From Psammoneis japonica (lineage: Eukaryota), in the NCBI GenBank assembly GCA_008632985.1, contig QPGO01000056.1, positions 1-64,000 of the forward strand: a DNA stretch of 64,000 bases, in the 5' to 3' direction. The position numbers were made by a program, and so were the translations under genes. Below are positions 530 to 64,000 of the stretch, piece by piece. Position 1 is the stretch's first letter, and every line of letters starts with the position of its first letter. The notes below the pieces were generated by a model that made no database searches, was not told where the DNA came from, and saw only the letters and a program-made list of their open reading frames with translations.

Positions 530-3500
530 TAAAAGGTGAGCCTGACGCGCTCTTGGAAAAAGACGAGCGCCATTGTACAACGGGGCCGGCTTGAGTGCCG
601 GCAGCTCCGAGCAACTGCCCAGAGAGTCAGAGACAAGGTGAACAAGGCCGTCCGGCAAACAACTCCAGGTGAAGATGAGACCTGGCAGCTCCGAGAGACA
701 GCACAAGAAGTTGTGTGCCTGTGCCAGCCCATTGGCGTTGGACAATTCCCGGTGCTTCTGCACATTGTGAGTTCGCAACAATTGAGTCAAGAGATGGAGC
801 GGAGCACACACAAGGCAGTCATTCCAGAGCTGAGGACCACTGCGAAGGTCCAGCCCAGCAGCCGTGTGAAATGTGAGAGGAGCAGCTCCGCATCGGTCAT
901 GGACATGCCAGCTCAGGGAATCTGCATGGAGCCAAGGAGGTCCAGAAGGGTGAGGAGCAGGGCAAATGCTGCAAAGGTTGCACCCAGCTTTGCGTTCATG
1001 GGGACCGAAGCGGTCCTTCATGCCAGGCGCAAAAAGGCTCTGAATGAAAGAGCGGTGTGCTGAAGGATGCACCCACAGAGCTGGCCATCATGAGGCACTC
1101 TTGGGCAATGATCCTTGAAAGGTGGGCAAGCTGTGACAGCGGCTGATTGGCCAAAGACAGAGCCCCTGAATGCTGGGTTGACGTGCACCGGAAATGGCTT
1201 GCATGCATCCGGGACAACTGCAGCCGCCGCGCCAGTGGAGCGGCCCTGGGGAATGAGTGGTTCCAGAGAGCAAGCAAGCAGGCCAGTGCACCACAGCCTT
1301 TGGTGCCCAGTGGCACTGGCTGCCTGCTGCCCTGGGGAGAAAGACCAGTCCTTTGTGAATGGCGCAGAGGGGGCAGGCGCGACGACAAACTGGTGGACTG
1401 GCTGTTGCACTACAATGGATCAGGGTGCAGCAAAGATGGGAGCTGTGGTGTGAGGTCGCTGCAAGAGGCCCACAACTAGCATGTCTGCAAATGGCGCTTG
1501 GTTGGTGGCCTGCGGGACATTCATTGTGCATCGCAGCGGCTGATGCTTGAGCCTTTGGGGGCTGGACCCAGGTGGCGGGTTGTGCATGCATTGGGATGCT
1601 TTGCGAGGCAAGTGCTCTGTTGTCCGAGCATTGTCATGGCATGCTGAGGGTTTTTGACTTGCCAGTGAGATTGCGTGTGGCCAGATGCGGCATGCTTGGC
1701 AGAGGTTGGATGTCATGAGGTGGTGGCTGACACCTGGGCTGCTGACAGTGGAACGGATCCAGCGGGGACAGGTGCAAAGCTGCTGCAAATGCTCGCTGCT
1801 GTGATGCCAACAAGTGGGCAGCAGCCTGAAACCATGTGAATTGACTCATGATGCCATCCCTGTCACTGTCATGGCCTCACCACAACTCGCAATGTTGCTG
1901 GGTGCAGAAGTTCCTGCTGTTTGAGCTTGCATCTCTTGCACTGTGATGAGCTGGCAAGGTGGGGCCAGTCTCTCCAGGCTTGCTGGCTTTGGAGAACAGT
2001 GAAGCAGGAGCGAGTTAACTGATTTGGTGGTGAAAGGGTTGAGACTGAAGCATCTGGAAGCCCAAAGCTTCCAAGTGGCCAGGGGGTGGTGGTGCCACAG
2101 GTCAAAGCAGAACTTGACATGCCTGGGACCCAAGCAGCATGCTGCAGGGGATGGACACCATGGAAGGCCTTGGACTCACAATCCAGGCAGGTGGAACATC
2201 AGTTGTTGTTGCTTTGCTGAGGATCCTGTTGCAACAAAGCTGAGAGGCCAGGTGCGGTCCAACATGACCAAGTCCAACAAGGCTGGAACAGAGGAGGCAG
2301 AGTCTGGAGAGTTGGAGCTTCCAAGTGATGCGGCAAATTGCAGTCAGGAATGAGATTGATGACAAAGTCAGAGGGATGGGCAACAACCGCAGCAAACCAT
2401 TCATGCAGCAGGTGATGAGAGGCCCGCACTTCATGGGAGGCAATGGCATTGGTGCTCATTTTGGAAAGGCTTGCCATGAACTGATCAAACATGACATCAG
2501 GCACCCAGATCTGTCCCACAGGGAGATCAAAACCTTTGCAGCTTGCTGGTCTTCAGACAGAGACACTGGGGTGGGAAGAGTCACCACTGTGCATTGAGCC
2601 AAGGCAGAGCAACTGCCCAACAAGGCACCCGCTGGTGCAAGGCAATGATGTCCATCAAGTTGGTGGGAGAGGTGATGGAGGGGACTGCAAGCCAGGACAT
2701 CATGCACAGCCCATTGAATGACCAAGCTGCTGATGAGAGGCCTGACAGCAGTTGATGGGTTCAGGGGACCATTTGGGTTTCTTTGAATTGTGCATGAAAC
2801 TCATTGCCATGGGACAAAACAGGTTTGGTGGTGTGGGAATGTGATTGGCTGAGGCTCAATGCAGGAGCCACTGACTGGGCCTCCGGTGGAGCCACTGCTG
2901 TTCCCTGCATGGCAGTGCTGAGACACGCAGTGATCATGATGACTGGATTGGAGCATGTGCAGGGGTTGCTGTTGTTCTGAGGTGGCTGGCAGACACAAGC
3001 CAACATGAGGGCCCTGTCAGAGACTTGAGCAGCTTGTGCTGCTTGACAGTTCTCCAGAGCATGGAGGCTCATGCCATCATCAGCTGGCAGAGCCCCAACT
3101 GGGAGGGCCATGGTGGTGGTGGCTAGACTGTCGGTGGCGGCCAAGAGGCCAGCAGCATGGCACTGTCATCAGAAAATGTGTCGGCGTGCAAGCCGCCGCA
3201 CTGCTTCAAGAGCCGGATGGACCATGCCGGGACAGGAAACTGTTGGGAAGGCCAGAACTGCTCACTCCAGAAGGAAGGAGCTTCTGCTGACAAAGTTGGC
3301 AACCAGCAACCTGCATCTGTGCTTTGCCAAGATGATGGCAGGAATGGGACAAAAGATGCTGAAGTGCTTGTTGAGGCAGCTGAGGAGCCACCATTGACAC
3401 CACGAGTTGTGAGAGGCATGGCACCAAGGAGCATGATGTGACAAAGACAAGTGCAAGATGCTGCAAGCAAAACTTGCTCTTGAACTCATCAACATGGCAG

Positions 3501-6500
3501 TGCAACTTTGGCAAAAGAAAGGAATGAGAGCTTGCTGCAGCTCGTGTGGTGCTCACAGGCTTGTGCACTGCTTCTGCATTGGTCATCTCCGATGCAGAAG
3601 CAGATTGCAAAAAGACAACCCCCCACTCAAACAGGGGGGGAGCACAGACCACCATCTCTCATTGGTGTCCAATCTGCACCAAACAATTTCAGACTGCAGT
3701 GTCGTGCACCCCTTTTTCTGACACATGGCAAGAAGGATTTTGTTGGTTTGAGAGCTGTTGCAACACAGGCTTTACTGATTGCAACCTTGTCACATCTGTC
3801 TCTCCCCACAACTTTGTTGTCAATGAAGTCTTCATCTCGTTTGACCTTTCAATGAAGCCACAGTCAACCAAAGAACAGGGTGGGGGCTGTGGCATGCTGC
3901 TCCAAGAACAAGCCCCAGCCAAGCCAAGTGCAAGAAAAGAGAGCTGCAAGCAAGAGCTGCAGTTTGGGCTGTTGAACATCAAAAACAAGTGAGACAAGAA
4001 TGCAAATGTTGTCAACAGGATTTGTGGCAAGCCAAGCACAACAGCTGGAGAACAAGCCAAAGTCCATGGGAAAAACTGTTGCACAGCTGGACTCTGTCTT
4101 TTAAGAGCCTTGTGTGAGCTGTGAGGCCAAATTTGAGCACTCTGATCTTGAAAGTGTGAAACTGACTCAATTGTGTGATGATGGCTCTGATCTTGAAAGT
4201 GTGAAACTGACTCAGCTTGCACTGAGAAGTGCTGTTGTTTTGATGGCGAATTCATTGCACCAAAGCACCATTGCTTGTTGAAGATTCAAGATTGTTTTTA
4301 CAAGATTGCCATGAAATTGGGGCAAAAAGCACAAAATCTAAAAATTCTTCATCTGACAGAAAAGAAGTGCTGTGTCATGTCTGCAGATCAAGGTGAGTGG
4401 TTGAAGGACAAAAGCAACTGGTGCTCAATCATTTGACATTGATGACCTTGAAATGAAAAGACTCAACTGGCACGGAGTCAATGGTGTCCCAACCAGAAAA
4501 TGACTGGGGCAACTCAAAATTCGGCATTTTTGTCTGTGTGAGTGAAGTGAGTTGTGTCAAGTTCTGTGGCCTTCAAAAGTTGTTGGATGCTGCAGTGCCA
4601 AGTGCCAACATTTTGCATGTGCACAAAGATTGCAAACTTGGTTGTTTTGAAAGTTGTCAACCCCAAACCCACCCCAACTCACCACAGCACCGGTGTCATC
4701 TCACCCATCTGTCTGTTGCCCAGTTGGGGCAGGCAGAGGGGAGACACACAGACAGATTCAAAGCACTGCAATGTGCTGGGTGCAACTGTCTGAGACATGC
4801 AGAATGGAGACCCAGACAATAAAAAATGGGTGACAGGGGAGACACAGATGGATTTGATGCATTGCAACATAAATGCAAGTGCCAGAGACATGCAGATTGG
4901 AGACCTGGACAGTCAAAAAATGGGTGACAGCCTGCATGTGCACAAAAACTCACAAGACTCTGATTCAAAAATTTACCATTTGTGCAGCAGCGTGCATTGC
5001 ATCACTTCAACAACACACAGTTGCACCCCTCTTGTCCCAGCAGTCTGCGCTGTTGATGCACAACATGTCAGAACCCCCCGCCACATCTGCCACTGGCATG
5101 TGAGGCTGCTGATCACTGCTGACAGCACACCACCAGTTTTTCAGAAAGATGGAATGTTGTTTGATGACTCACGTGCCATTTGTGGCACTGAGCTGTGGTG
5201 CATGGCAAAGAGATGCTGTGCTTGCATGTTGCTGTCAAGGGAATGAACCTGTTCAACAAGAATGGTGATTTGTGTTGGGTGCTGCTGTTGCAGCTGGCAT
5301 TGACAACTGTGGCGCCAACCCAGGACGAAAATCACATGCTGGCCACCCCAGCTGAAATTTGGGGTCACATTGGAGAAAAAGGGCTAGGTGCAGAGCCAAT
5401 GTTTGATCAAAAAAGCAGCCAAAAAATGTGGTTGCCTCTGCACCTTGTTCTGATCAGTGTGGCATGTTGGTTGCTCTGTCATGTGCAAAATGATTTTTTC
5501 AAAAGAAAAATAAAAACAACTCTTGTCATGTCAAACTTCAGGAGAAGAAACTCATTGTTGCATGAGGTCTTGTGCTTGATGTGACAGTTTGTGCACGCTG
5601 GTGGCTGGGCAGATGTGGGTGATGTGGTTGGACTGACAGGTGCAACATCTGAATCTTCCATTTGTTCTTTTGTGCTGAATTTTGCTGTCATGCTGCATTT
5701 GCACTTGGGTGCCAACCATTTCCATCTGGTCATTCTTCATGCCAGATCCATCCAAGCTCTTGCCATCCAGGCCACTGAGCAAGCATGAGCATGGCACCAA
5801 GATGAGCTCAAGCAAAGATGCAGAGCAAGCAACAAGCGTGTGATGTGTGGCTTTCTTTTGGATTTTCCAGGCCAGCTTTGTGTGCAAGCCTGCAGCGCAA
5901 ATGCACAACATTGACAGCTGCTCTTTTTTGCTGATGGCAAAGGAGTTGTTTCAATCTTGTTGTCATGAACAACCTTGTCACCTTCTTTGCAGCCACTTGA
6001 AGTCATGGGTCTTTTGATGTTTTGGATCATTTCTTGATTTTTGTGCGCAAGCACCCCACCACCCTTTTCTTGTTGTCCTGATCTCCAATGTGCAGACAGC
6101 GTGGAAAAAATGCAGTTGTGCACCACAGCAAACATGCAAACACACCTGGGATGATTGCAGCACAGGCAGGTCATTCCAACACGCATGGATTGTGAGATGT
6201 GGTAATGTGGATGAGTTGAGCGCTGAGCAGACAACAACCGGCAATGAAGTCGACAAAGGAGGAGATGTGGAGATTGAGCCAACAGACTCAACTTGCACAT
6301 GACAGCAACAACTGACACACAGAGAGTGGCATGTTTGTTTCTACCAAAAACAGACCCCAGATTGAAGCTCTGCAGCCAATGTTGCAACAGGGGCAATGGG
6401 CATGTCAGCATGCGGCATCACATTGATTGCAAAGCACCAACAGCAGCTTCTTTTTCACACAATGAATCAAACATGCCTTCAAGCCATCCACAAGCCAAGA

Positions 6501-6750
6501 AGAACAAAATTGAGACCAATGTTCTTGAGACCTGCCTCATTGTGGTGACAAGCAGCCTCAAGAACTCCAATGGCATCAACACTGACATCACGTCAAAAAA
6601 TGTCTTTGCAGAGAACCTTTGGCAAATCAAGTTGAAAGCTTTCACTCACAATGAGAAGATTGACACCAACATCCAAAGAGACGTTTTGCATTGTGTCTGT
6701 GTGCAAGTGCTCAAGAACCTTGAGAAAGACAGGATGCGACACATCTTTTA
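530..6750. other. CpG/TpA-depleted, TpG/CpA-rich degenerate repeat domain A
   Basis: TA and CG are very rare while TG/CA dominate. All six frames give Cys/His/Gln/Trp/Met-rich, nearly Tyr-free spurious ORFs. Contains short internal direct repeats (4140-4169/4185-4214; ~4735-4930). Boundaries approximate. Confidence 0.85.
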
Positions 6751-8396: not shown

Positions 8397-9749
8397 GGCC
8401 TTTTGGCTTTTTAGAAAAGTTAGAAACTAACGGTATGCTCAATTCTCAATCAACACACTCAAGTAGGGCAGTAATACGAAATAACGCCGCGATAAGTATG
8501 AACAAAAGTTCGTTGTGTTTGCAAGTCGTCGTGTTGTTCTCGTTGTTTGCATTGTGACCGCGAAACGGAGGAAACACAGACCGTGCAACTCAAAAACCCT
8601 CTGGTCTCTGGTGGAGATCAGAAGTGTGGGAAAAGAGGAGCTGCAGTGATGACACCAGCAGCAGACTCTTGACAGGCTCTTTCCCCGACCTTGCAACAGG
8701 CTGCAACTCTGAAGGAACTCCCATCAGGAGTTGAACATCATGTTGTCAGTGTGGAGCACACTGGCTGGGGCACACAGAGTGCTGGCTGCCTGAGCTTGCT
8801 GGTTGGTGGCCTGAATCTTTCCTGCCGCTGCCTGTTTGTGTCAACTCCTGGCTTTCTTGGATGCTGCATGTGGTGATGGTCTTGGCAGTTGAAGGTGTGG
8901 GGACCACTGGCTGTCACTTGCTTTGTGGTGGGCAAGCGGGTGCTGTGCGGGGTTTCAGCAGAGCTCTGCAAGAGGTGGATCTGTGGCTGCAACAAACTCC
9001 AGGATGGAACTGGCTTCTTTTTGTGCAGCTGGTGCTGCAACATGGACAATGAGTCTAGGATTAAGATTGTTGAAAACTGCACCCCCCCCCACCCAGCCAT
9101 CTTGTCACACTGTTGCTTTACATTTTGTGACTTGAGGCTGGAAGGAAACCAGGCATGTTTTTTCACAAGACACATTCCCAGCATTGTTGACCCCTGGCAA
9201 CAACCCAACCAAGGCTCTGGGGTTGATGCTCAATGCAGGGCATGCAGAACAAATGAGGGGATGCTTTGAAGAGCCAGAGCAGCAGCTCTGATAATGAGAA
9301 AGCCACCCAGCAAGCATGGGAGAAGCAGAGAAGGGCAGTGCTTCAAGCGTGGCAAACAAAGAATGTTGCCAAGCCATGGGGTTCCACAAAGGGCAGTGTG
9401 GGGACCAACAAGCAGAAAAAAGGACCAAAGAAGAAAGCATGCAAAATGGTGGGAAGAAGAAGCTCTTGAACAACAGAAGCTCCTCTGACAGCTCCATGCA
9501 GAGAAGGATGTGCGTGCAGGCATTGACATGGACCCACTGGTTCAAGAAGCCATGCACAGGAGGGATCAGTGATGATCCTCTTCACAGCCTTTGTTGGCAG
9601 CAAGTTGTTTCAAGCAAGGAATGGTCTGCAGACTGCATTGCTTGGATTTCAAACTTTGTTCTTACACCAATGTGAGCTGTGCCTGTGAAATGCTGACTGG
9701 CATTGATTCCTGACACTGTCCAGAACCATCTCTCCAAAGCACAATGCCT

Positions 9750-11390
9750 TTTGGGGGGCTCTAAGGACTTTGCGGGGTGCCACCATCATTGGCCTCAACA
9801 CATTGAACAGAGCCATTGATGACAAGTTCATTGTCAATCTGGACAACTTGGTGTTTTGTTGCACCATGACACCTGTTTCATTTGTTTCTTTCTCACGTGC
9901 ATCATGACCTTTCTGGGTGCCGATGTCTGTGAGCTCAAAAGTGGAGCGTCATTCCCACAGAGATTGGCCAGTGTGGAGCAGTGGGAGCCACCCATGTTTC
10001 ATCCTTCTTGCAAGAACTTGATGCATGCAGAGGCCAAGTGATGCAAAAATGGATTGCCACATGCCAAAGCTCCTGCTTTTTGCCATAAAAAAGAGCAACA
10101 CTTCTTGGATTCATCATGTCCACATTGTCGCACATCTGAGATCCACATGCTTCAGCTTGAGACAGGAAACAAAACTAAGATGTTTCAGCACCTTGGTTGG
10201 GGCCCAGTCAGATGCATTGCACCCAGTGAGATTGGCGAACTCAACTCATTGAAGATTGGAAAAGTTGCAGAAGACAATGAGGGGACAAGCAGGTTGACAC
10301 CAGCACATTTTTCTTTTTCTGACCAGCTGACCATTGGCACTCCAATTTCAAACCATTTTGTGCTGAGACTTGGACAAACTGGACCATCAGCAAATGTTTC
10401 ATGAGTCAAATCCTCAGGGGTGTTGTCAAACTTGAATGTCCCTGCCAAGCAAGTTTCCACCCATTCACATGAAAAGTTGAGTTTTGACAAATGTTCTTGA
10501 GGCAGGCAAATCAGGAATGAAAGCAAGATTGAAAATGTTCTTCTTGCAGTCTGCACTTTCATTCTCATCCCACCAGGCTGTGTTGCCATCATTGGGCAAG
10601 AACCAGTCGGGAGCACAGCACTCGAATTCTTCCCAGCTGTTCACTTGTCCCCACAATGGGTGCAGCCACAACAACTGGAGACACCACTGCAACCTCCCAA
10701 GCCACCATGCAATTTGGGTGCTTTGAGCAACTGACAGCATGGCAAAAGATCATCACAGTTCATGGCAAACCTGCTTGAGCTGCCGCTGATTGTGGGCTGG
10801 GCACATTTGTGCTCTTGGAAGAGCAGAGCAGTGCCTGGCGGGGCAGCTTTGTTGCCATTTCAACAACTGCAAATCTCCATTCCTTTGACATGTTGTTGGT
10901 TTGGACAAAATTGTTGTCCTCTTGGATTTGAGCATCATGGGAGAGTCAATGGCCACAGGTTTTGCAATGCAAATGAGGCATGAGTGTTTTGGAAAAGTTG
11001 TTGATTGGTTTGTGCAATTGGGGGGTTTGTGCAAAATTACATCCAACATGATCTGTTTTGTTTGTCAGAAAACAAACATTCTTTCTGTGGGTTCTGTTGC
11101 ATCTTGTCCCAAAATTGCAGGTTTTGCAATGCAGATGAGGCATGAGTGTTTTGACAAAGCTTTTGCATGCTTTGTGCAACTTGGAGATCAATGATGACAG
11201 TCAACAGGATGTGCTTCATTTGGCGTTTGTGTTGTCCTGACTTTCTAGGTCAGAAAACAAACCCTCTTTCTGGGTTCAGTCGTGTGTCTCATCCTGAAAA
11301 TTGCCCAGGCAAGGATTCCAAAATTGCACATAATGCCACTCCAATGCTGGCTGGCAGAAGTCAAAATGTCATGGTCTCTTGTGCTTGAGG
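9750..11390 (-). pseudogene. Hypermutated duplicate of the Yippee-like/LRR-like gene at 17051-18313, including its upstream region
   Basis: Colinear with ~17050-18570, e.g. 10401 atgagtcaaatcctcaggggtgttgtcaaacttgaatgtc vs 17756 atgaatcaaatcctcaggggtgttatcaaactcgaatgtc. The 5' segment gaggcatgagtgtttt is duplicated (~10975 and ~11137). Confidence 0.9.
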
Positions 11391-12363
11391 GTGCTCATCC
11401 TCCAGAAATGCCATGGCATTTGAACAAGACAGTTTGAAGTGTTTGTTTTTGAATGCAAAATTGGTTCATGTTCACACCCGATTGCACATGAAAACAAGAA
11501 CATCAGTCACCATGATCAAAGCATGATGGTGCTGATGGCAGCAATCTTGACATTTCTCCAAAATGCAGTGGCCATCCATCCTCAAACATTTGATGTGCAT
11601 GTGACCTTTGATGCTTGACAAACACAATGATCAAATGAGAGCTTGAAGATGGACTGCCTCCATCACAGACTTGTGGCTTGATGTTTTCACCATGGCAAAG
11701 CACAGTGAAATTCAAGAAATGTGATGCAAATCACAAGCTTTTCATTTGGCCAAATTTGAGCTAAAAAAGTGGCAAATGATCCCCCGTGACATTGCTGTGA
11801 TTTCTAAAAAAAATTGATGATGTTTGCAGTGACCCAAAGGATGCCTCCTCTTGCAAAGCATGAAGATGTTGCAACAAAACAAGAGTCATGGCCTGCATTG
11901 AGCATTGACAATGAGCATTGACAATGCACCACATGAGCACTGATGATGAGGGGGGACCTTGGCATCAGCGAGTCTTGACTTGTGTGGGGCCGCTCCCCAA
12001 CCAGGGCTGCCATGGTTCTCTTGCTTGGCTTGAAGTCAACCTTGCTCTCTTCTTGATCCTCTTCTTTGTTGCCACCACTGACCACACCCAGCACTTCTTC
12101 AGCTGAGAGAGGGTCATCAAAACATTTCTTTGGGGTCAACTTGAGCTTCTGCACAGAGTGCTTTGAACTCATGCTGTGCTCCAGGGCACCACTCTGGAGC
12201 ATGGCTGCATTGGTTGTTCCTCCAGTCAATGGGGCAGTTCAATGAAGCTTTTTTTGCCTCCAGCACAAGATGAGACACTCACTTTCAGCCAGTCTCACAT
12301 CTTGCTTGTTCCCCTTCCATTGGTGGTTTGGCACCCTTTTGTGTCTTTGCCAGCACTGTGGGC

Positions 12364-24165: not shown

Positions 24166-24361
24166 CACGCCGAAACGTGACGAAAGGATCGGATCACAAT
24201 GGCGTTCTTCATGTTTTGAAACTCGCAAGACTACAAGTACGGTATGGAATGGATGGCACAACGCACGCCGAAACGTGACGAAAGGATCGGATCACAATGG
24301 CGTTCTTCATGTTTTGAAACTCGCAAGACTACAAGTACGGTATGGAATGGATGGCACAACG
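24166..24361. repeat. Perfect 98-bp tandem duplication (2 copies)
   Basis: cacgccgaaacgtgacgaaagg...gatggcacaacg at 24166-24263 and 24264-24361. CG and TA are fully retained. Confidence 0.9.
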
Positions 24362-49730: not shown

Positions 49731-49880
49731 GCAATCTACAAGACACAGAAGGCAAAGGTGTTCAATGTCATCACAGGGCAATGTGCAAAGGCCATTCATC
49801 ACAAGCTTGAAGGAGTGATGGAGTTCGTGAGAATTGTGGAGGAGTGGGACATGGTGGCACTGCTGGATGTTCTAATGGAT
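49440..49880 (+). mobile_element. Copia-type gag remnant
   Basis: QADGCTKTARKIGKHI and AIWMKKHDHCVKQNAIYKTQKAKVFNVITGQCAKAIHHKLE...DMVALL resemble diatom Copia gag as I recall it (ADxYxKTTxxIxEYV; KAKVFxxIxGQC...KLE). Confidence 0.6.
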
Positions 49881-53188: not shown

Positions 53189-54640
53189 TAAAGTGGGGAG
53201 ACCTGACAACTGCACAAAAACACCCATCACCAAAGGCAAGGCAGCTGCACGCAAGGACAAGGAACAACATGTGAGACAAAGTGCAACATGCAGACAAGGA
53301 GCTTGTGCAGAAACAGAGTGTCTGGCCACTTCACCAGTGGCTGCAAGAGGCACAGAGCAAGAAGAAAAAGCCAGCAGAGGGGGGCAAGAGCCGCACACAG
53401 AGAGGAGAGTGGTGGTGTTTGCTTTGCCTTGAAGAACCTGGTGGAAGAGGCAAAGAAAATGCCAGAAGGGGGAAATTGTGAGACTGCTTTGGTGATGCCT
53501 GAGATCTGCCTCACAAAGAACTGCTTCAATGCACAGTCGATGACACGCCACAAGTGAAGTCAAGAAGCCACACACAGACAAAAAAAAGCAAGTCAACTTG
53601 GCACAGTCTTGACCAGGGTGGCGGCTCAAGAATGCATGCAGTCACCTGCAAGGTGCCAAGCAGCACAGAAAAGCAACTTGGATTTTAAAGTGGGGCAAGC
53701 TGATGATTTTTCAAGCACGACCATCGCCAAAGGCCAGCTGTGCTCAAGGACAAGGAACAATTTGTGGAGCAAAGTGTGGTGTGCAGACAAAAGAAGTTTG
53801 TGCAGAAGCAGTGTGTCCAGCTGCTGTGTTGATGGCTGCAAGAGGCAGAGCAAAAGAAGCCAGGGCAGCACTGTGCACCAGCTCCCACAGAGAGCCCCCC
53901 TGTGTCTTTTGAAGAAACAGGTGGGGATGAACAAGGTGCCAAAAGGGAAAATTGTGAGGCCATTTTGGGTGCCAAAAGCAAGAAGTTGAGATGCTCTGCA
54001 GCGCAACTCAGCAAGAGCTCATTGCCACCCCAGCAGGCCAGCCAAGCATGTGTTGTTCATGACCAAGCAGCACCCTGCAAAGTGTTTTCAGCCCAACTTT
54101 GGGGTGTGGCCCGCCAGTTGTTGTTGAGAACTGCCTCACAAAAAACTGCTTCAGCGCTTGTCGCTGAATCTCCAAGCACATGAAAGCACTGAAGTTTGCC
54201 AAAGATGCCATTGAGAGAGTGCAAGCATGATTTGCAGCTTTGGCACAGAGCTCCCAGCACAGTGCTTTGTGGAGAGGTGCCAAGATCATGAACAAGAAGA
54301 GCAGCAGCAGCAGCAGCAGCAGCAGAAATCAGCTCTGTGTGTTGGAGCAGCAGCAAGCAGCCAGAGCAAAAAAAAAATAAAAGATGAAAAGAGCAGAAGT
54401 TCACAGCAGGCAAGCAGCATCCTCTGAGGTGGCCAGAAATGATCTCTCCAGTGCGTGCCGTGGAGCACAAGGCAGGCAGCGTCAGAAGCAGGGAGAGAAA
54501 ACAAAGGCTTGCTTTTGTGAGGATGGCATGAGCATGGTCAAGAAGCCACACAGAGAGAAGCAAGAAGCCAACTTTGTGCAGCCTTGCAGCTTTGGTGCCA
54601 GGCGGCGGCTCAAGAACAGCGCACATCATCATGCACAGAC
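53189..54640. repeat. Degenerate ~500-bp direct repeats
   Basis: aaagtgggg...ccatc(a/g)ccaaagg...caaggacaaggaacaa at ~53189 and ~53687. gtcaagaagccacaca...ggcggctcaagaa at ~53559 and ~54537. Confidence 0.7.
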
Positions 54641-57600
54641 GCTGCTCTTGCAAGGCACCAAGAAGAGCAGCATCGGTGCTGGTCAGCTCCCATCTGCAAG
54701 ACCTTGGTCTCTTGCATTGCCAACTTAGAGCACTTTGTGGCAGAGTTGAAAATCAAAATGCTTTGATCAATGTGCACAGCATGGTGGCAGGAAGGAAGTG
54801 GGCAAAAGAAGACAAGAGCTGCTTGGGGTGAGCGAGGAGACAAGCTGAGACAGTGGGGCAAGCAACAGCTGACAACGGCAATTCTTTGTGCTCAGAATGC
54901 CTTCACTTCACATTTTCTGTGTTCACTGCCCTGTTTGCTTGCATTAGACTGGTGACATTTGTGCCACAAGATCATCACTCCGTGCGCGCTTCACAATGGC
55001 AGTTTAAAGCTGTGTTTGACTAACTTGATTAAAATGACAAAGGGGCAATGTGTGATGACTCTCACAATTGCCCAATTTGGCAAGTGACAAATTAGCCTCT
55101 GTGTGCGGTGCATCCTTGAAATGTCCTGTGCCTTGTGTGCAGCACAAATTTTTCACCGCACATGAGGTGCAATTGCTCAAAGGATGACCTTCCACGTCAG
55201 CACTGTCGTCATGTGCATTTGCCCACACTGTTTGACGACCTGCCCTTGGCCGTGGCTGTGTTTGTTTTTGTCGCGCTGCAACACAAACAGGGAAAACTTG
55301 AAAACAAAGAGAAATGAGAAATGAAGACAGCGCACCTGTGCAGTGCAGCGCATGCAGGCGGGTGTCAAATGATGTCTGTCTGCAAGCAGATTCCAGACGA
55401 TGGAAAGCCAAGCAAGGCAGACATTGTCATCATTCCATTTTCAATTTTCAAAATTGCAAGATCACCAAAAAAAAAGGTCATCAAACACACTCGCTTTGCA
55501 CTCACAATTCTTCTAAAATCACTTCTTTGTTTCATTGCTGTCACTGAGCATGCAACCTTTCTGAGCTGTGGTGCATGATCTCCACATTTGCACTTTTCGA
55601 GCAGGGCGAGCCCAAACAGCAGAGGCCAAATTTCTCATGGAGTTGAGTTCAAGAGGGCACAAAACTGTCCCTTGTGCAGTCAAAACAGTTTTGCAGGTTT
55701 GCTTTTGCCAGCAAACATTGTGCACTCTTGATGTCACCAAGCAACCCCTCCTTTGTGTTCTCCAGAGTTCACATGCAGGCCACACACCCAACCACAAGAC
55801 ACAGAGTTTGGAGCTGCACCACCCTTGCAGCATCATCCATTTGAGTCAGATTTAAGCTCAGAAAAACAAAGGATTGCCATGGCAAGAATTGGCAAACAAC
55901 AGAAATTGTTGTGCCCCACACAGAGCCACGGTGTTGTGTTGAGTTGTGATCATCCTCTAAAGCCCTGTTTTTTGTTTTGTTGAGCAGCCCAACCATCATT
56001 GTTGCATTGTTTCTAGAAGTCTTGTTTCATTGACTCTCTTTGGGGAAAAACTCTTGCATTGCTGTTCTTTGGATGAATTCTCTCTCTCAACAAAATTGCC
56101 TGGATCCTCCACACTGTGACAGCATCCCCCCGTCATTGACTTTGATGCAAGCTGGCTCTTCCAAAAGCTGCCATCAAAGAAGAAACATGCCTGGTGACTC
56201 AAGCCTTGGCTGCATGCACACACAGTGATCTGTTGGCACCCAACACCACAGCGGCACTCTGCCCCATCATTGCGGCAGCTTGCTTCATCATTTCTCCTGA
56301 AGTTGCACTCGTTTTGGGACCTCAAATGTGCCTCATGTGTGGAATCTTGGGATGCATTGAGCTGGCTGCAGCTTCATTGGTGCACTTTTGGGTGCAATCA
56401 GTTCTTCAGTTGTCAATCTTGCTGGGGCATCAGCATGGCTCTGGATCTGTGCTCTTGTGGAGTGCTGTGGGTGTCCTCATTTTACAGCTCTCGATGGGCA
56501 TTTTTCAATGTTTCAGCCATTGCAAGAGGGGGCTCATTTCCCTTTTCCGTTTTTGCAATGATGACAAAGCAAGTGGACGGATGACATTGGACATCATCTT
56601 CTTTGGATTTGTCCTTGCTGGCACACTTTAAAAAACTGCTTCTTTCCCCCAATGTGGCAAATTCTGCATTGAACATTGGGATGGGAGGTTGCACCATTCC
56701 ACTTTTGCAACATGTTGACTTGTGCAACATGTTGGGTGGAATTTTAATGGGCCATTCATTGGATGGTGGCTTTGCAACAGTGCACAATCATTGCTCTGTT
56801 GCCATTCACTCTGCATGCACCAAATTTGTTTGAGAATTGTCTGTGATCACATGGAAAAGCATTGTGACAACTTGTGAAAACAACATTTTCTTGACTGTTT
56901 CAAATCCCATTTTTGAAGTTCAAGCAGCCTGTGGCAGCTTCTTTTGCAGCAACAAGCAGCACGTCACTGTGTTTGTTTGACACAGGATGCCACACCCCTC
57001 CTCTTGGAAGAATCCATCACTGGTCACTGGGGACATTCTTGCAGACAAAGCACAGAGTGACTGTCCCACAGTCTGGGTGGCCATTGTTCAAGTGATTGAC
57101 ATCAACTCCAATTGCTTGCTGATTGTGCACACAAAAGACTGCTGGCAACCAAGCTGCTGCATCACTTTGACAACCAGATTCTGTGTTTTGTCTTCTGCAA
57201 GAGTCAATGCAGCTTGCTTTAAGTTCTGCAATGCCACACTTGTCGGGATTCAAACTGCTGCTGTGCACACTGTGAATTTGCCCATGGGCTCTGATTTGGT
57301 CAAAGACATTCTTGCAAGTCATCTTCCATGAACAAGGAACGGAACCCAGATTTCATCATTTGAGCACATGACGCCAATCTCTGCAATTCCAATGACGGAA
57401 AGATCATCAGAGTGAGTGTCGGTGGTGATGAATTCTCCCTCATCACATGCAACCGTGTCACTGCCCCTGGTTTCCTTCTGGCTTGGAAGGACTTGTCCAT
57501 TGTTGACAATGTCTCTGACAGCAGGGTCAGTCCATTCGAGTGTGAGTGGTTGTCACCACCATCACAAGAACCAACAAGGGCATTGCCAGCATCGACGACC

Positions 57601-60600
57601 ATGTTGCAGTGATCATCAAGAGCACAGCCCAAGTTTGTCAAGACTGTGTTGGTGGCGGGTGGGGGGAATGAGTCAAGTCACTCCACTTGGATGGAAATGG
57701 GAGCAGGGCTTAAAGCTGTGCTGGCAATCCAAGTGGCTGCATCGCCATTGGCTTGTGGTTTTGCTCCATGAGTGCAAATGCTCATCTTCTCTGTGTTTGC
57801 TTGTAATTTCTTGACTGCCTCCTTTGCTTCTTCTGAATGCACACTGGCTTCCAGGCTGTTTCCACATCCTGCAAGCTTGGCTTTTGCTTCAAGGGTCAAC
57901 TTGTTGGCACATTTGGAATCTTGGACTACATTGAGAATGTGCATTTGATGGCCACAGACTGATCACATGGTGACCTTGATGACATGATGCATCCCGAAAT
58001 TGCCAAGAATGCAGCCATGGACAGCAGCTTCATTGCACTCATCTGGCAAAGCATCAAGCAAGGCAAGAAAGTCTCGGTGAAACTTTGGAAGAAGACTTGA
58101 GCTGATGCGTGCTTCACAGGAGCAGCAAGAAGCCTCCATCTGGATCATGGTCTGTTTGGATTGGGACAACTCATCTCTGGTAGGCTGGAAGTGGTGAGAG
58201 GTTGAGAGCTGGGCAGTGACACCAGGAGGAGGGGGAGTGTTGTCAAGTGGGGGTGGGGCATTTTCAAGTGTGGAAGAAAGACTGACATCCTGGCCAATGT
58301 TGTTGCTTGTTCTGTCTCCACTCAAGAGGGCCACTGCTGTGCCAACAATGATGCCAACAACAAGGACAAGCAATGGACTGGCACCAGCAACATTCATCTT
58401 GGTGCAGTTGGTGGACATTTTGGGTGTGTTGCTGTCCACCTCGGTGTCAACATAAAGCAGAGTTGTCTTGTTTAAATCATTCTTGCTCATGTTGTTATGA
58501 GGATGTTTTTGATTTGTTCTCAACCTGAATTTGTGAGAGGTTTGGTTCCACCATTCTCCTTGCAGACAACATTTTGACTGCACAAACAATTTGCTGCATT
58601 TGAGTGAGTCAAGCAAGTCCCGTGCTGCTGCAATGAGTGAGGATGATGTCATCAGTCTCCTGCATGAGCAGTCTGCCATTCTTGGTTTCTTTTGTTGTGC
58701 CAACTGAGTGACAAGGTCATGATGTGGTCAAGTCCTGCACATGAGTCAGACTCCTNNNNNNNNNNNNNNNNNNNNNNNNNNNNNNNNNNNNNNNNNNNNN
58801 NNNNNNNNNNNNNNNNNNNNNNNNNNNNNNNNNNNNNNNNNNNNNNNNNNNNNNNNNNNNNNNNNNNNNNNNNNNNNNNNNNNNNNNNNNNNNNNNNNNN
58901 NNNNNNNNNNNNNNNNNNNNNNNNNNNNNNNNNNGGCTGCAGCTCCAAGCAGCTCACAGGTGTCAGCAGTCCGCCAAATCACTTGTCCAGCCTTTTTCAC
59001 AAACTCCTTCTTCAGCTTCTTTCAAAAGTTGTGCAGCGCAAGGCAGCAAAGCTTGCACGATCTAATGTGTTGTGAGGTGGGCACAAGCTTGTGGCATTGC
59101 AATTTTTTCATGTGTGTGCCCAAAGAACAGAAGTTTGTGGAAAGGTGGCCAAGAAACGAAAATTCCATTTTGCTTCTGTCCATGGTGAAAAGCAGGGCAT
59201 GCATGCTCATTTTTTTTCATTTTTTAGAGCTCGCATGCTTCTGGCACTCTGCCCCAGCTTTGCTGGTGTGTGGTTGCACTGTGCACTCACATCTTCTCCA
59301 TTCCTCTGGAGTGTTGACTTTCTTGCTGAGTGCCCCAAAAAAATCCCTCCTCTCCACCCCTCTTCCTGTTCTTGCTTTGTGTGCTCCAGCTGCTGTGCAG
59401 CATGTTGGTGTGTGCTGCGCCACACCCCCAGAAGAAAAGAAAGTTTCCCAGGATGCTGCCCACTGACACAAGTCAGGAACTGACAAAACAGCAAGCTTGA
59501 TGACAAATGAAAGACACTCACACAGTTTGTTGTCAAAGACAGACATGTGCAGCAATGTCAAATGACCATGCACATGCTGGCTTTTTGTGCACCGCTCTCG
59601 AGTGGTTTGATCTGTGACAGTCTGCATGCTCAGCAGAGAGAGTGCCTTTCTGGGGTTTGAAATGAGGTGTCTCTGCCCCCAAAAGCAACTTCAAACAAAG
59701 GTTGCACCTGCACCCAATGTGCTGCTCAGCCAAACATGGTGTGCGTGGTGCTCTTCAAAGCTGGTGGAGTTGTCACTCAAAACAAACAGAGCACCAACAG
59801 CTGACAGCAGTGTGCACAACACCCCCCAAAAAACCTGAGCAGCTTTTGAAGCATGTGGGCTTTTGAGAGAAAAATTTTTGTGAGCAGCATGTGTGAGAGC
59901 CATGCCAGCTGATGTTTTGGCAATGAACAAGCAGCTGTGCACTGTGCTCAAAGAACGAGCACAAACGAAAGCAGAGCAAAGGACAAAAAGTGAAAATTGT
60001 GAGATTGGATTTTACTTGATCATTTTGGGATTCTCCAAACAAGTTCTCAATGGCCCAAAGCTTCTGCACTGCTTCTGCAGACCAAAGGCCTTTTGGAGAA
60101 TGTGTTCATGACAACAGATTGTCCGGATGCGATTGCTGTTGACACATGAGATGTCAACATTGTCAAGCGATTGCTTTCTCAAATTTTGACATCCAATCAA
60201 TTCCATGTGACTGACATCTGTCATTTGCATGAACCCATGATTGACGCACAATTAAGAACACAACAATGTTCAAATGTGAAAATGTGTGCACATGCACACA
60301 ACAATGCATGTTGCATTTGCCTCCCATCAAATGACACAATGCGACAGACATTGACAGTGTCAACTGTGTCAGCCACCGCGTTTGATCTGCACTGTGTGCC
60401 ACTGGCATGTGTTGTTGTTGTGACATGCGGTCCAGCACATGGCTGTTCTAATCTTTGGGAGTCTGTCATGTTGCCCAGCACTTGATGTGCATGCTCAATT
60501 GTGGCATCAGCTTGTGAACTTCATGCAGTCATGGGCTTGACTTTTGTGCCACAGTCCTCTTGAACCACATCTTTGAAATTGTGTCCAATGAACTCACTTC

Positions 60601-63600
60601 CACGGTCACACGTAATTGACGATGGCCAAGGACATCCACTTGGCCACATCCTTTCCAACAGCCCAGCTGCAGCTGTGGATTCCTTGTTTGGAATTTCCAC
60701 AACTTCAAACCATCTGGTTGCCAGATCAGTCATTGTCAAACATTTTGCAGGTCCAATGAGATCCACACATGGTTGTTCCCATGGCACTGATTCTGCACAC
60801 CCAGGAGGCAAATGTCCACATTTCTTGTGTTTCTTTTTGAATTTCTTGCACGTCTCACATTTTGACATGCATTTTTGCATGTCTTCATGCAAGGCAGACC
60901 ACCACAAGTGTTGTGAGATTGTTTCTTCTGTTCTGTTTGTGCCACGGTGAAGAAGGTGCACATGGCGCCAATCCATCACCGCTTTTTGTAACGTCTTTGG
61001 AACAATGATTTCACCCTTGTGACACATGAGCAACCAGTCTCGCTCACCTCCACAAAAAGTCTTTGCATGAAATGTCTCTTTGGACAATTTGGAGAGAATG
61101 TCTTTGTCCCATTTTTGTTCAGCATCAAGAACTTTGCACGTCAACGGAAAGACATTGTCGTGAGATTTTGGTGGGACCTTTTCAGCCATTTCTTCTGTGC
61201 TGAGATTTTCCATGGGTTCTGTGTTTCTGATGGCAAGTCGGCTGATTGCATCTGCAACAATGTTGGCCTTGCCCTTGAGGTAAATTATTTTGGGGCTGTG
61301 TTCTTCTGTTGTCAGACGCCAACGCGTGACTCTGTCCATTGTGAAATTTTTGTGTGTGAGATTTTTGTGATCCACACACACATTTGTCTGTTGGCCAAAC
61401 AGTGTGTTCTGGAATTCTTTGAGTGTTTCCACAATGGACAGCAGTTCTTTTTCCATTGCAGCATGATGTGTCTGTGCTCCATTCAGCTTGCGGCTGTAGA
61501 AAGCAACAGGTTGGTTGTTCTGCGCAATGACTGCCCCCAATTGAGAATTGCTTGCATCAGCATGCACCTCAAAGGGTGTTTTAAAATTCAGACATGACAA
61601 CAACACATCTCTGGAGATGATGCGCTTCACATTTTTGAAGGCTTTTTGTTCTGTTTTGGTCCATTGCCACTTTGCCTTGGATGAGGTGAGTTTGACAAAA
61701 GGAGCCACAATGTGAGATTGTCGAGGCCACATGTCTTGACAGCAGTTGATCAACCGACAAAGCATTGCAATTCCTTGCAAGTTTTGGGAGCTGCAATCAC
61801 GTGAATTACTTCCACTTTTTTTGGCATTGGACTGATGCCATTGTGAGCAACATGAAAGCCCAGACAGTCTGCTTTGGGTTTGGCAAAGAAGGGCTTTTTG
61901 GCATTGACCTTCAACCCGGCTTGTTCAAGGCATGTGAACACCCTTTCAAGCTTTTTGAGATGGTCTTGAAAGTCTCCTTTTGCAAGGCACAACATGTCAT
62001 CAACACAAGTCCTGACGAACTCCAGACCTGCCATGAGTTCACTCACGTGCTCTTGAAAAACATCTGGAGCTCCGCAGATTCTCACAGGCAGCCTGCAGCA
62101 CTCATGTTTGCCCCAAGGCATGATGATTGTGCACAAGCAACGTGCGTGCAGAGTTGATTTGATGTGACAGCATCCCATGTTCAAATCAAGTGAAGTGGCA
62201 TGCATGAAACCCTTGAGCTTCTGCAGCACATCTTGAACATTGGGTGGAGGAAATGGATCACACATTGACCTCTCATTTGGTTCACAAAAGTCTGATGGGA
62301 ACCAAACTTGACCAATTTTCTTTGGCTGAACAAAGGTTGGAGCTGCCCATTTGCAACAATTGATTTTTCTTAAGACCTTTGGCTTGCACAGTCTTTCAAC
62401 TTCCTTTCCAGCAGTCACCTCCAAGGCTTGTGATGTGGGAAATGGCTTTGTGTGATGCGGACTTGCACCCGATTTCAACTTGAGATCCACTGGTTTCCCA
62501 GTCTGTTTGCCCAGAGAACCATCAAAAAGATCCTCAAATCTTTTTAGAAGAAAGTTCAGTTGTTTTTGCTCCTCTGGAGTTAGATGAGTTGCTGCTGCAG
62601 CCACATTGTTGAGGTCAGCAGCATGATGATCTGAGTCAAGGATCCAATTGACTGTGTCATTAAGACCAATCACGGCATGAGATTCCTCAATGTGATTGGC
62701 AACAAACTTGAAAACATTGGCATTGAAGAGTGTGTCAATGTTCTTCACAGGTGCAGTTGCTTCTTCCTGTTTGATTTCTTCATTCAAAAAGTCCAATGTG
62801 ACTCCAAGACTGGACAACAAGTTGCATCCCATGATCACATCACAACAACTGGAGGAAGAAGGGGTGTTGTCAACATGTGCTGAAGTTTCCATCATCTCAT
62901 GTTTGTCAAATTCAAGTGAGGTGAAATGGATTTTACACTGACTGTCAGTCGTGAAGAGTCCTCCTTTGGTTTCCCAAATTTTGGTGGCAGATTCTTTGGT
63001 TCTGAGTTTCCGCGTGAATTTGTGCAAAATTGTTGTTGACGATCTTCCGCTGTCAAGGAGAATGCACAGAGGCTTGTTTTTTCCTTGCCCAAGGATGCAT
63101 TCACATGGGCAATGACTTCTGGACCAGAGTGAATTGCTTTGGCCTTTTTCCTTGTCTTTCTAGCAACATCCAGCAACACACAAGACTCCTCTGGTGGAGT
63201 GAGTCATTCTTCAAAATCGCTGTGGGTCAATTTTTCAAATTGACGGTTTTCCTCACTGAGGGCATCTGAGTCATGATCCTTGCTCTTGCGCTTTGCATCA
63301 TTGTTCGGGCAACTCAACTTGAACATTTTTTGAACTGCCTTGTCAATCATGGCATTCAGCTCTTCTTTGCGAGTGGCGTTTCCATTGTTGCGACATGACC
63401 ATGTGCGATTGCCATTCGAACAATGCCGTTTTTGATCACGCCCACAATTTCCATTGCATTCCTTGGCAAGTTTTTTAATGACCCAGCATTTGTGTGTGTG
63501 TTGTGAGTGTCCTTTTTGCAGCACTTACACCACTTTTCAGGATCATCTCGTTCAGCACCAGATTGGCAACCATTTTTGGAACCATGACTGGATCCATCTT

Positions 63601-64000
63601 TGGCTTTTGACCCAGGCTTGCCACTGGCATCAGCCTTGACATTGACAGAGTCAAAGATGTCCTCAGCAACCTCCAGTCACTCCAAGAACTCCACCAACTC
63701 ATCACAGGCATGCTTTAAATTCTTGAAACCTTGAAGAGTCAACTGGCGCTGCCATTTGCATGGCACAAGGTTGTAAAAGACATCCTTGAGCTTGTTGCCC
63801 TTGAGCTTCTGATCTTCTGCAAAGGGAGGACAATGCTTGAGGTCTTCGTTGACTTCTTGGATCCAAGTGGCGATTTCTCGGATCTTCATGGTTTCTGGTT
63901 TCTTGAGATCATGATGTGGATGAAGCTTTTGAATCTGGAGAGTGTTCTTTGGAAATGCGTGCCTTGTGAGGTGTTGCAGACATTTTTTGAAGGCTGCTTT
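53190..64000. other. CpG/TpA-depleted domain E (includes N-gap 58756-58934)
   Basis: Abrupt loss of TA and CG after ~53190 that persists to the window end. Confidence 0.88.
60330..64000 (-). mobile_element. Degenerate Ty3/Gypsy LTR retrotransposon (gag-PR-RT-RNaseH-IN), truncated by window end
   Basis: gag (PPFAEDQKL...LVPCKWQRQL...DELVEFLE), protease ILLDSG (~63045-63063), RT (WAAPTF, SLDLNMGCCHI, RTCVDD), RNase H (ADASNSQLGAVI, FYSRKL, EKELLSIVETLKEF, DHKNL), integrase (HVHLLH...C..C, DLIGP, CDRGSEF) and a decayed GPY/F tail (LEQPCAGPH). Order PR-RT-RH-IN. Confidence 0.93.

Follow-up and report, generated by a model that had tools for sequence, protein, structure and literature searches.

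Why does a diatom contig alternate between islands of ordinary composition and blocks in which TA has nearly vanished together with CG? The stretch analysed here, hereafter the window, comprises 64,000 nucleotides of Psammoneis japonica (assembly GCA_008632985.1, contig QPGO01000056.1, positions 1 to 64,000). In the reading that we favour, its five blocks would be silenced and decaying transposon DNA of the diatom nuclear genome, rewritten in place on the chromosome by two context-specific transition processes, CpG decay and a separate TpA mutator, with a deaminase as the most likely agent of the latter. We judge this account as a whole to be probable. Its parts carry different weights: it is very likely that a real and targeted TpA mutator has been at work, and adenine deamination as its chemistry falls somewhat short of an even chance.

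Dinucleotide observed/expected ratios (o/e) were computed per kilobase and on the pooled blocks (26,333 non-N bases) and pooled islands (37,225 bases). The blocks hold 85 TA (o/e 0.05) and 309 CG (o/e 0.20), with CA and TG at 1.84 and 1.76, against island values of 0.51 for TA, 0.99 for CG and 1.18 for CA and TG alike, i.e. a 10-fold TpA depletion at near-equal G+C content (49 % in blocks vs 48 % in islands). A preliminary description of this DNA had reported five domains almost void of both TA and CG, with a large TG/CA excess; the TA loss and the excess stand, while the CG loss was overstated, one fifth of the expected number being left. It had also raised the case that TA in these domains might be no lower than in intergenic island DNA. 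The block value of 0.05 compares with 0.58 in island DNA once ORFs of at least 150 aa are excluded (CG 1.04), and with 0.44 inside the long island ORFs. Among 126 segments of 500 bases, 73 were normal and 49 low for both dinucleotides, four were low in TA with a CG o/e of 0.5-0.63, and none was low in CG with normal TA. TpA loss and CpG>TpG/CpA decay share the same discrete blocks, as had been described.

The blocks, to which no strand is assigned, were delimited from the positions of TA and CG. Block 1 (531..6740, the right end being approximate) has essentially lost TA from 577 onward, and its stretch 577-1410 is TA-free with a CG loss (o/e 0.45) milder than deeper inside. Block 2 (8498..15177) follows the last island TA, at 8497, the next TA being at 15178, and has its CG edges at 8582 and 15232. 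Block 3 (38793..40499) includes an N gap at 39174-39436, on the left of which 38793-39173 has no TA at all and a normal CG o/e of 1.03. Block 4 spans 47896..49736, and block 5 (53190..64000, N gap 58756-58934) continues past the end of the window. At most borders the TA and CG edges lie no more than ~10-130 bases apart, and TA density shifts at block edges within tens of bases.

The assembled bases were compared with a public DNA run (X1), which is possibly the assembly's own source sample and whose contigs span 7000-16900, block 2 included, nearly letter for letter, with 5 differences in 2206 bases, 1 in 1227 and 2 in 4013. The preliminary description had made its reading depend on raw reads; support at the level of contigs is thereby provided, at 0-5 differences per 1-4 kb, with the same reservation on the origin of the run. 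A sequencing or assembly artefact such as modified-base miscalling could draw on the two N gaps and the repeats within blocks, and on the ability of modified bases to bias some base callers. We give this explanation practically no credit: besides the agreement of the contigs, the changes make sense at the codon level (conserved Tyr turned into Cys or His), unrelated metagenome assemblies carry the same signature and, by reasoning, strand-specific miscalls would leave TA in a two-strand consensus.

Contig depths also point to repeated DNA in block 2. Two multi-copy segments, 11303..11964 and 12627..12957 (neither with an assigned strand), reach summed contig depths of ~500-1900 and ~2500, respectively, vs ~58, and the loose ends of the other copies of the second lead into DNA with CG and TA. 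In block 3, 39549..40228 (+ strand) consists of two tandem copies of ~340 bases with 95 % identity. They differ in 16 alignment columns, among which are two TG/CA double differences and three sites where CG in one copy faces TG or CA in its partner; it follows that conversion went on after the duplication, in place.

The individual changes can be read from the sole island/block paralogue pair within the window. The converted copy (9790..11118, + strand) has TG/CA where the island copy, ~7 kb away (17141..18438, + strand) and with normal TA and CG, has TA/CG. Over an alignment of 1345 bases (78 % identity), with the island copy used as ancestral-state proxy, none of its 41 TA is kept in the block copy, where 17 read CA, 14 TG, 4 TT, 4 AA and 2 otherwise; 64 of its 67 CG are lost, 31 having become CA and 28 TG, and 3 are kept. 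About 8 % of the sites other than TA/CG are changed. Per base, transitions affect 34 of 82 TpA positions vs 49 of 581 other A/T, and 60 of 133 CpG positions vs 39 of 465 other C/G, C>T alone reaching 28/66 at CpG and 15/219 elsewhere. From this pair, TA loss is estimated at no less than ~30 times background per base, as an accumulated footprint and not a live rate. The conversion of TA to both TG and CA, its strand symmetry and near saturation, and the preference of A>G for TpA, which the preliminary description had proposed or had asked to be checked, all hold in these counts. So does its statement that the direction is opposite to that of fungal RIP, with TpA depleted, CpA/TpG enriched and C>T at CpA at the background level (6/93). 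RIP itself was rejected as the cause on the 10-fold depletion of TpA and the unmutated island duplicate.

The pair also bears on a simpler idea, namely that an untargeted TpA>TpG/CpA bias acts on the whole genome while selection on compact genes and promoters keeps TA in the islands, the blocks being merely neutral DNA. Island TA is indeed already low, notably in long ORFs, the islands are gene-dense, and selection may preserve the island copy of the pair. That copy, however, has one in-frame stop (- strand) and yielded neither a Pfam family nor a usable match in the protein atlas, and it retains the 41 TA that its paralogue has lost; TA also persists in island DNA outside long ORFs and switches in density within tens of bases at block edges. 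Moreover, in Phaeodactylum tricornutum the mutagenic contexts given for mutation accumulation are CG, CC and TG, not TA (PMC6604790). We therefore regard such a bias as improbable, the more so in view of the metagenome copies presented below.

The bases that flank the surviving TA reveal what is targeted. Those in blocks (n = 82) are distributed as YTAR 48, RTAR 17, YTAY 17 and RTAY 0, against 220, 375, 288 and 373 in the islands (chi-square 91, p = 1e-19), and this skew leads to a three-base target, T-A-Y. As TpA is palindromic, A>G at T-A-Y is indistinguishable from T>C at R-T-A.

Coding remains were searched for within the blocks. Since TAA and TAG are gone and TGA is the sole stop left, the 26 kb of blocks contain 202 stop-free frames of at least 70 aa, all of which (107 of them in blocks 1 and 2) were scanned against Pfam as stop-to-stop ORFs. 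Apart from a gypsy pol, the scan returned a MACPF fragment and, in block 2, a weak, sub-threshold DUF5562 match, and nothing else; block 1 gave no Pfam family, and no recognisable transposon protein was found in three of the five blocks by these scans. For blocks of that kind, decay, multi-copy depth and position suggest a transposon nature. The MACPF match is a weak one to the start of the domain (E 1.5e-5) in a converted ORF of block 5 (57966..58727, - strand), which is either a pseudogene or an element-borne gene fragment.

The pol region of block 5 (60431..63994, - strand; reverse transcriptase, RNase H and integrase) belongs to a dead Ty3/gypsy retrotransposon, and the best relatives found for this pol are 46-53 % identical; a tblastn search of the window with 20 gypsy relatives found no further gypsy sequence outside it. 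Tyrosine is nearly absent, with 2 residues in 467 in the ORF 60524-61924 and 0 in 469 in 61753-63159, and the YxDD motif reads CVDD. In an alignment with 60 relatives, Tyr reaches at least 70 % in 26 columns, where the window pol has 13 Cys, 7 His, 2 Tyr and 4 other residues, while among the other conserved columns His is kept in 7 of 7, Phe in 23 of 26 and Asp in 19 of 23. Conserved Arg is kept in 13 of 29 columns, and the itemised changes include Gln (4), His (3), Cys (3) and Trp (1). Stop-poor blocks are also a hazard for annotation, as they yield many stop-free frames. Among 150 representatives of gypsy pol "proteins" in public protein sets, six are Tyr-free or almost so (Tyr 0-0.2 %, Cys+His 8-12 %).

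As an independent replicate, we used 80 metagenome loci of a gypsy family unrelated to that of the window. Their TA o/e extends from 0.11 to 0.84, a range covered by closely related and dead-looking copies, which again argues against an untargeted bias. Sixteen converted copies were each paired with the nearest unconverted copy; the members of a pair may come from different organisms, so that these comparisons leave single-copy targeting within one genome unproven. Of 1970 TA, 652 became TG, 597 became CA and 588 were kept, with few reverse changes (37 of 2238 TG->TA, 48 of 2899 CA->TA). The rate of A>G was 0.325 after T, 0.050 after A and 0.034 after G and, within TpA, 0.46, 0.45, 0.20 and 0.20 before C, T, A and G, respectively. 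The T-A-Y preference is consequently found in both the window blocks and this family, in which surviving TA follow the same order of contexts. Runs tests detected no strand-coordinated runs in the 16 pairs (mean z -0.04, range -2.75 to +2.01): the hits in this family are single-site and unclustered by strand. Processive single-strand deamination of the APOBEC/AID type was discarded, as the strand-coordinated clusters that characterise it were not seen in these pairs.

CpG loss was symmetric between converted and unconverted members (348 vs 352), and the extent of TA loss varies widely among copies with equal CpG decay; in this family, CpG decay is independent of TA conversion. These data weigh on another proposal of the preliminary description, error-prone Pol-eta-like filling (WA>WG) during repair of 5mC-derived T:G mismatches, of which TA loss would be a by-product. 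The coincidence of TA and CG depletion in the window blocks is what such repair would produce. Yet ApA, the other WA context, gives no signal, either in the duplicated pair (A>G 11/101 after A vs 10/89 after G) or in the metagenome family (0.050 vs 0.325 at TpA), the CpG decay is the same in converted and unconverted copies, and the edges 577-1410 and 38793-39173 lack TA while keeping CG to a partial or full extent. The proposal is contradicted on each of these points and we retain very little belief in it.

Hyperediting at the RNA level fares no better. Transcripts of a retrotransposon would be converted from A to I, by an ADAR-like activity or one of the fungal sexual-stage type, then fixed by reverse transcription and integration. 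A retrotransposon is present in one block, and the A edited by ADAR-type enzymes is preferably preceded by U (bioRxiv 10.64898/2026.01.13.699255). Changes are nonetheless comparable on the two strands, with 14 TG vs 17 CA in the duplicated pair, 13 Cys vs 7 His in the pol and 652 TG vs 597 CA in the metagenome family, the duplicated segment is converted although it is no retroelement, and the tandem duplication of block 3 kept converting afterwards, in place. Furthermore, ADARs favour a following G, which is disfavoured in the metagenome family (T-A-G 0.20 vs T-A-C 0.46). This route too is contradicted, and its chances appear very slight.

We return to two processes acting on DNA. The first would be ordinary CpG>TpG/CpA decay, as expected given the CG methylation of diatom transposons, methylation being presumed here. 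The second would be a TpA mutator, separate from it, that acts on either strand and replaces A by G within 5'-T-A-Y-3', so that TA becomes TG or CA; both processes end at TG/CA, and all four pyrimidine-purine steps therefore lead there. The sharpness of the blocks suggests a coupling to heterochromatin, and the agent would be an enzyme brought to foreign DNA or silent chromatin. The likeliest candidate is a DNA adenine deaminase, of the kind proposed for Bigelowiella natans, producing inosine that is read as G. The outcome is a permanent missense inactivation, through Tyr->Cys/His, Arg->Cys/His/Gln/Trp and Met->Val, and all signals that carry TA vanish as well (TATA, AATAAA, TAA and TAG).

The same footprint may also arise from the thymine side. 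A TET/JBP-type dioxygenase or another modifier would act on silent DNA and mark the T within 5'-R-T-A-3', and the resulting 5-hydroxymethyl- or 5-formyl-uracil would mispair with G at replication, giving T>C. On account of the palindrome this equals T-A-Y A>G in sequence, and single-site, unclustered and strand-symmetric changes fit a mark on double-stranded DNA. Precedents exist: the 5hmU found in dinoflagellate DNA favours TpA and TpC, trypanosome telomere repeats carry base J at the T of their TpA step, and 5-formyluracil causes A:T>G:C changes. On the other side, the authors of the B. natans study prefer adenine deamination, likewise on indirect grounds. We see the thymine-side chemistry as a minority option, though one to be taken seriously. 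The preliminary description had likewise named both a TadA-like adenine deaminase and a mutagenic base modification at TpA as possible agents, and each of the two stays plausible.

Tentatively, and with more doubt than belief, we may extend this idea: diatoms, B. natans and the owners of the metagenome family would share a chromatin- or RNA-guided adenine editor of double-stranded DNA at 5'-T-A-Y-3', a heritable defence beside cytosine methylation and independent of it, widespread in SAR eukaryotes. Among known enzymes, the natural site of bacterial TadA is U-A-C, which is compatible with T-A-Y, whereas the tRNA sites on which eukaryotic ADAT2/3 naturally acts are mostly U-A-purine, a mismatch with it. 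If the footprint is confirmed genome-wide, transposon control in diatoms would have, next to methylation, a second layer that cannot be undone, and the known range of a barely described mutator would come to include retrotransposons and a major group of phytoplankton. The T-A-Y target, the independence from CpG decay and the single-site changes on two strands supply testable handles. A natural enzyme turning chromosomal A:T into G:C would, if real, be relevant to the fields of genome evolution and base editing.

How does this footprint relate to known systems? Decay of methylated CpG resembles it in that CG>TG/CA transitions are limited to transposon blocks and to CpG, and diatom transposons are CG-methylated by DNMT5 (PMC9998398). 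Such decay accounts for the CG half only, as it leaves TA in place and gives no reason to expect a T-A-Y motif. The RIP of Neurospora and other fungi is alike in that its transitions depend on sequence context and inactivate repeated or selfish DNA for good, within segments that have sharp limits and that, in RIP, also become methylated. RIP consists of C:G>T:A changes, typically CpA>TpA, that enrich TpA, make stop codons and mutate both duplicates, and its events tend towards strand coordination. The process in the window, in contrast, destroys TpA and enriches CpA/TpG, deletes TAA and TAG and has left the island copy 17141-18438 untouched, and the changes in the metagenome family are free of strand coordination. 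TadA, ADAT2-3, ADAR and laboratory adenine base editors share with it the conversion of A into I, read as G, and a preference for T or U before the target. The natural substrates of TadA/ADAT2-3 and ADAR are RNA, whereas that proposed for the window is double-stranded chromosomal DNA, and the preference of ADAR for a following G has no counterpart here.

A full-text literature search, with most subscription journals outside its coverage, did not turn up any account of diatoms with TpA depletion or hypermutation, in agreement with the preliminary description, which had further presented the process as a candidate new mutator. Within that search it appears new for diatoms, but not as a kind: TpA-only A:T>G:C hypermutation has been described in integrated NCLDV and virophage DNA of B. 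natans (Mettrop et al., bioRxiv 10.64898/2026.01.13.699255), a 2026 preprint on what is so far the only other alga with such a reported TA-specific footprint. In its mutation-accumulation lines, 230 of 231 mutations in two viral regions were A>G or T>C, all at TpA, and the authors propose genome defence and an ADAT2-like adenine deaminase. The two cases differ in lineage, the window coming from a diatom (stramenopile) and B. natans being a rhizarian (chlorarachniophyte), in saturation (TA o/e 0.05 in the window blocks vs a RhoTpA of 0.45 in the NCLDV region) and in targets, retrotransposon-type blocks here vs integrated viruses there. CpG depletion coincides with TpA loss in the window, and the words CpG, trinucleotide, flanking and diatom are absent from the main text of the preprint, as are two features described here, a preference for T-A-Y and hits without strand-coordinated runs, although its supplementary tables may hold flanking-base data. 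B. natans provides live rates, the window a fossil footprint only. The likeness is nevertheless extensive according to that text: in both, A:T>G:C changes restricted to TpA yield TpG and CpA on two strands, they are limited to separate stretches of foreign or selfish DNA (an origin that is inferred for blocks 1-4), and they have left a long-term depletion of TpA with enrichment of CpA and TpG, the TpA-poor coding sequences of B. natans being themselves enriched for reverse-transcriptase and DDE domains.

The window is diatom nuclear DNA. The long ORFs of its islands, i.e. the gene-rich DNA of normal composition, encode CSE1/exportin-2, ClpB, V-ATPase subunit a, an amine oxidase and a DUF3179 protein, and the V-ATPase subunit a shares 79-81% identity with diatom proteins (named matches include Seminavis, Cylindrotheca and Nitzschia). 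A 98-base perfect tandem duplication (2.0 copies, 100% match) was found at 24166-24361, in an island of normal composition. Diverged paralogous segments of the gene island (26032-27503 and 30091-31553, also 24938-25115; about 72-75% identity) probably form a small tandem gene family, no copy of which is converted. At 36001-39000 (ClpB gene and downstream kb), TA observed/expected (o/e) is just 0.27-0.30, below other islands, with normal CG; this may reflect codon usage.

Five blocks poor in TA and CG (531 to about 6740, 8498-15177, 38793-40499, 47896-49736 and 53190-64000) were confirmed by per-kb tables, 200-base counts and pooled counts. These domains and their TG/CA excess, reported in the preliminary description, are real and the effect is large: the pooled blocks (26,333 non-N bases) contain 85 TA (o/e 0.05) and 309 CG (o/e 0.20), with o/e of 1.84 for CA and 1.76 for TG, versus 0.51 for TA, 0.99 for CG and 1.18 each for CA and TG in the pooled islands (37,225 bases). 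G+C is similar in blocks and islands, since gains through TA>TG/CA balance losses through CG>TG/CA. Island DNA outside ORFs of at least 150 aa has o/e of 0.58 for TA and 1.04 for CG, so that the contrast is not one of coding versus non-coding DNA; the possibility raised at the outset that TA in the blocks is no lower than in such DNA is thus countered (0.05 vs 0.58).

The blocks are sharply bounded, and most of their TA and CG limits match (last or first TA/CG at 8497/8582, 15178/15232, 40500/40645, 47895/47765, 49737/49826 and 53189/53182). Among 126 windows of 500 bases, 73 were normal for both dinucleotides, 49 were low for both, four were TA-low with CG at 0.5-0.63 and none was CG-low with normal TA. 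Two edges are TA-free yet retain CG, i.e. 577-1410 (CG o/e 0.45) and 38793-39173 (CG o/e 1.03), where the TA process either extends slightly beyond CpG decay or is faster. Contigs of a public DNA run, which may be the assembly's own source, match 7000-16900, with pieces of 1-4 kb each showing 0-5 differences. Both an artefact and a genome-wide bias without targeting are contradicted by specific counts.

Two converted segments of block 2 (11303-11964 and 12627-12957) reach about 10-40 times the local depth in the public-run contigs and are therefore multi-copy in the genome; some of their other copies adjoin DNA in which CG and TA are still present. With TAA and TAG erased, TGA is the sole remaining stop in the blocks, which hold 202 stop-free frames of at least 70 aa in 26 kb over six frames and will give rise to spurious gene calls. 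A converted ORF adjoining an N gap (57966-58727, minus strand) shows a weak match (E 1.5e-5) to the beginning of a MACPF/perforin domain; it represents a pseudogene or, alternatively, a partial gene borne by an element.

The direction of change was read from a duplicated pair found by self-comparison of the window, then aligned and counted, in which a block 2 copy (9790-11118, plus strand) shares 78% identity with an island copy (17141-18438, plus strand) taken as proxy for the ancestral state. None of the 41 TA of the island copy was kept in the block copy (CA 17, TG 14, TT 4, AA 4, other 2), and the earlier inference of a TpA-targeted conversion to TG/CA proved correct. Only three of 67 CG were kept (CA 31, TG 28). 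Transitions per base reached 34/82 at TpA versus 49/581 at other A/T, and 60/133 at CpG versus 39/465 at other C/G. Editing of retroelement RNA is excluded, both strands being affected about equally. No WA signal was detected in the pair (A>G after A 11/101, after C 7/94, after G 10/89). The island copy is unaltered though it lies just 7 kb from the converted one; duplication is thus not its trigger, unlike in RIP, which the intact paralogue contradicts.

Block 5 carries a dead Ty3/gypsy pol (60431-63994, minus strand), whose two long frames contain 2/467 and 0/469 Tyr, about 5% Cys and 4.3% His (island genes: 2.9, 1.4 and 2.0%, respectively). It was aligned with 60 relatives (P0121-P0180), and columns with Tyr in at least 70% of them were considered conserved. 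At these 26 columns the window has Cys 13 times, His 7, Tyr 2, Leu 2, Arg 1 and Phe 1; elsewhere, conserved positions are mainly retained (His 7/7, Phe 23/26, Asp 19/23, Cys 8/10). Arg persists in 13 of its 29 conserved columns, with replacements including Gln (4), His (3), Cys (3) and one Trp. Replacement of conserved Met by Val (6/11 columns) and of Ile by Val, Thr or Met is consistent with TA steps across codon borders. At the catalytic YxDD motif the window has CVDD, and the intact relative P0241 (53% identity) has YIDD. Among the 120 relatives listed for the RT frame, four are Tyr-poor (0.6-1.8%), with Cys/His in place of Tyr and Arg retained, most clearly in the alignment of P0265, P0301 and P0337. 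One RT-frame relative from another source (P0300) has Cys/His in place of Arg and intact Tyr, a pattern of CpG decay only, in contrast to the Tyr-free relatives. For the RNase H-integrase frame, 150 related cluster representatives included six with 0-0.2% Tyr and 8-12% Cys+His, and five further ones with 1.1-1.5% Tyr.

The change occurred in situ. Block 3 contains a tandem pair of copies, each of about 340 bases and 95% alike. They differ at 16 alignment columns, among which are two double differences of TG versus CA and three sites where one copy has CG and the other CA/TG; conversion therefore continued after duplication. The 82 surviving TA examined for context in the blocks were distributed as YTAR 48, RTAR 17, YTAY 17 and RTAY 0, versus 220, 375, 288 and 373 in the islands (chi-square 91, p 1e-19). 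A 5'-T-A-Y-3' target predicts this pattern, because RTAY presents a favourable site on each strand and YTAR on neither. Within the duplicated pair, target adenines changed in 21/48 cases with Y next and 10/34 with R next, i.e. in the same direction with small numbers.

Metagenomes scanned with an alignment (A3) combining the window RT frame with these four Tyr-poor relatives yielded 80 loci, most of them belonging to one gypsy family from a few related assemblies. Across this family TA o/e ranges over 0.11-0.84, TG/CA increases from about 1.0 to 1.59, and CG is steady at 0.5-0.8. Each of 16 copies with TA o/e <0.4 was compared with its nearest copy at >=0.6 (nine loci at 0.4-0.6 were excluded). 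The 1970 TA of unconverted copies, which may come from different species than their partners, became TG 652 times and CA 597 times and were kept 588 times; reverse changes were few (TG->TA 37/2238, CA->TA 48/2899). CG>TG/CA changes numbered 348 versus 352 in reverse, so that CpG decay is equal in converted and unconverted classes. A>G rates were 0.325 after T, 0.050 after A, 0.034 after G and 0.123 after C, the last mirroring CpG loss in the reference copy (control direction 0.098). Pol-eta-like WA>WG filling during repair synthesis, one of three mechanisms initially proposed, is rejected, as the pair gave no WA signal and ApA stands at 0.050 vs 0.325 for TpA in this family. By following base, A>G at TpA was 0.46 (C), 0.45 (T), 0.20 (A) and 0.20 (G), and the surviving TA fractions (0.168, 0.083, 0.071 and 0.015) follow the context order of the diatom. 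TA loss is uneven along the contigs. TG and CA outcomes, like converted and unconverted sites, were randomly mixed (mean z -0.04, 16 pairs), which contradicts APOBEC-like clustering. Two contigs from different assemblies (L004 and L005) have an identical TG/CA outcome string across their overlap, and represent one and the same converted copy, or else one whose duplication came after its conversion.

The process is thus an A:T>G:C change specific to TpA (T-A-Y), strand-symmetric and limited in this diatom to sharp-edged blocks; in the metagenome family, where both properties were tested, its hits are single-site without strand clustering and are separable from CpG decay. It would involve an enzyme brought to silent or foreign DNA. 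Polynucleotide adenine deaminases typically prefer a target preceded by T, and the natural site of bacterial TadA is U-A-C. On these grounds, and because the authors of a B. natans preprint also hypothesise it (bioRxiv 10.64898/2026.01.13.699255), we tentatively favour adenine deamination. A thymine-side lesion at R-T-A, e.g. TET/JBP-type oxidation to 5hmU or 5fU, is equally consistent with the sequence data, though we consider it rather unlikely.

Full-text literature searches found no report of TpA depletion or hypermutation in diatoms. In P. tricornutum mutation accumulation, the part of the article available gives CG, CC and TG as the contexts prone to mutation and shows no influence of TpA in its 156 mutations (PMC6604790). 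Some diatoms possess a RID-like DNMT4 of unknown function, and deamination and TpA are not mentioned in the available portion of that article (PMC9998398). The process put forward as a new mutator is real; its claim to be wholly new has been overtaken by the 2026 preprint on another SAR lineage, which reports that 230/231 mutations in two integrated viral regions of B. natans were A>G or T>C, all at TpA, at about 1000 times the background rate and in some lines only, and that reverse-transcriptase and DDE domains are enriched among TpA-poor coding sequences (bioRxiv 10.64898/2026.01.13.699255). The words diatom, CpG, trinucleotide and flanking are absent from its main text. The diatom case is a further example of this type of TpA hypermutation, to which it contributes saturation, occurrence in the same blocks as CpG decay and the T-A-Y motif; the metagenome family further shows that the process is independent of CpG decay and that its hits are not clustered by strand.
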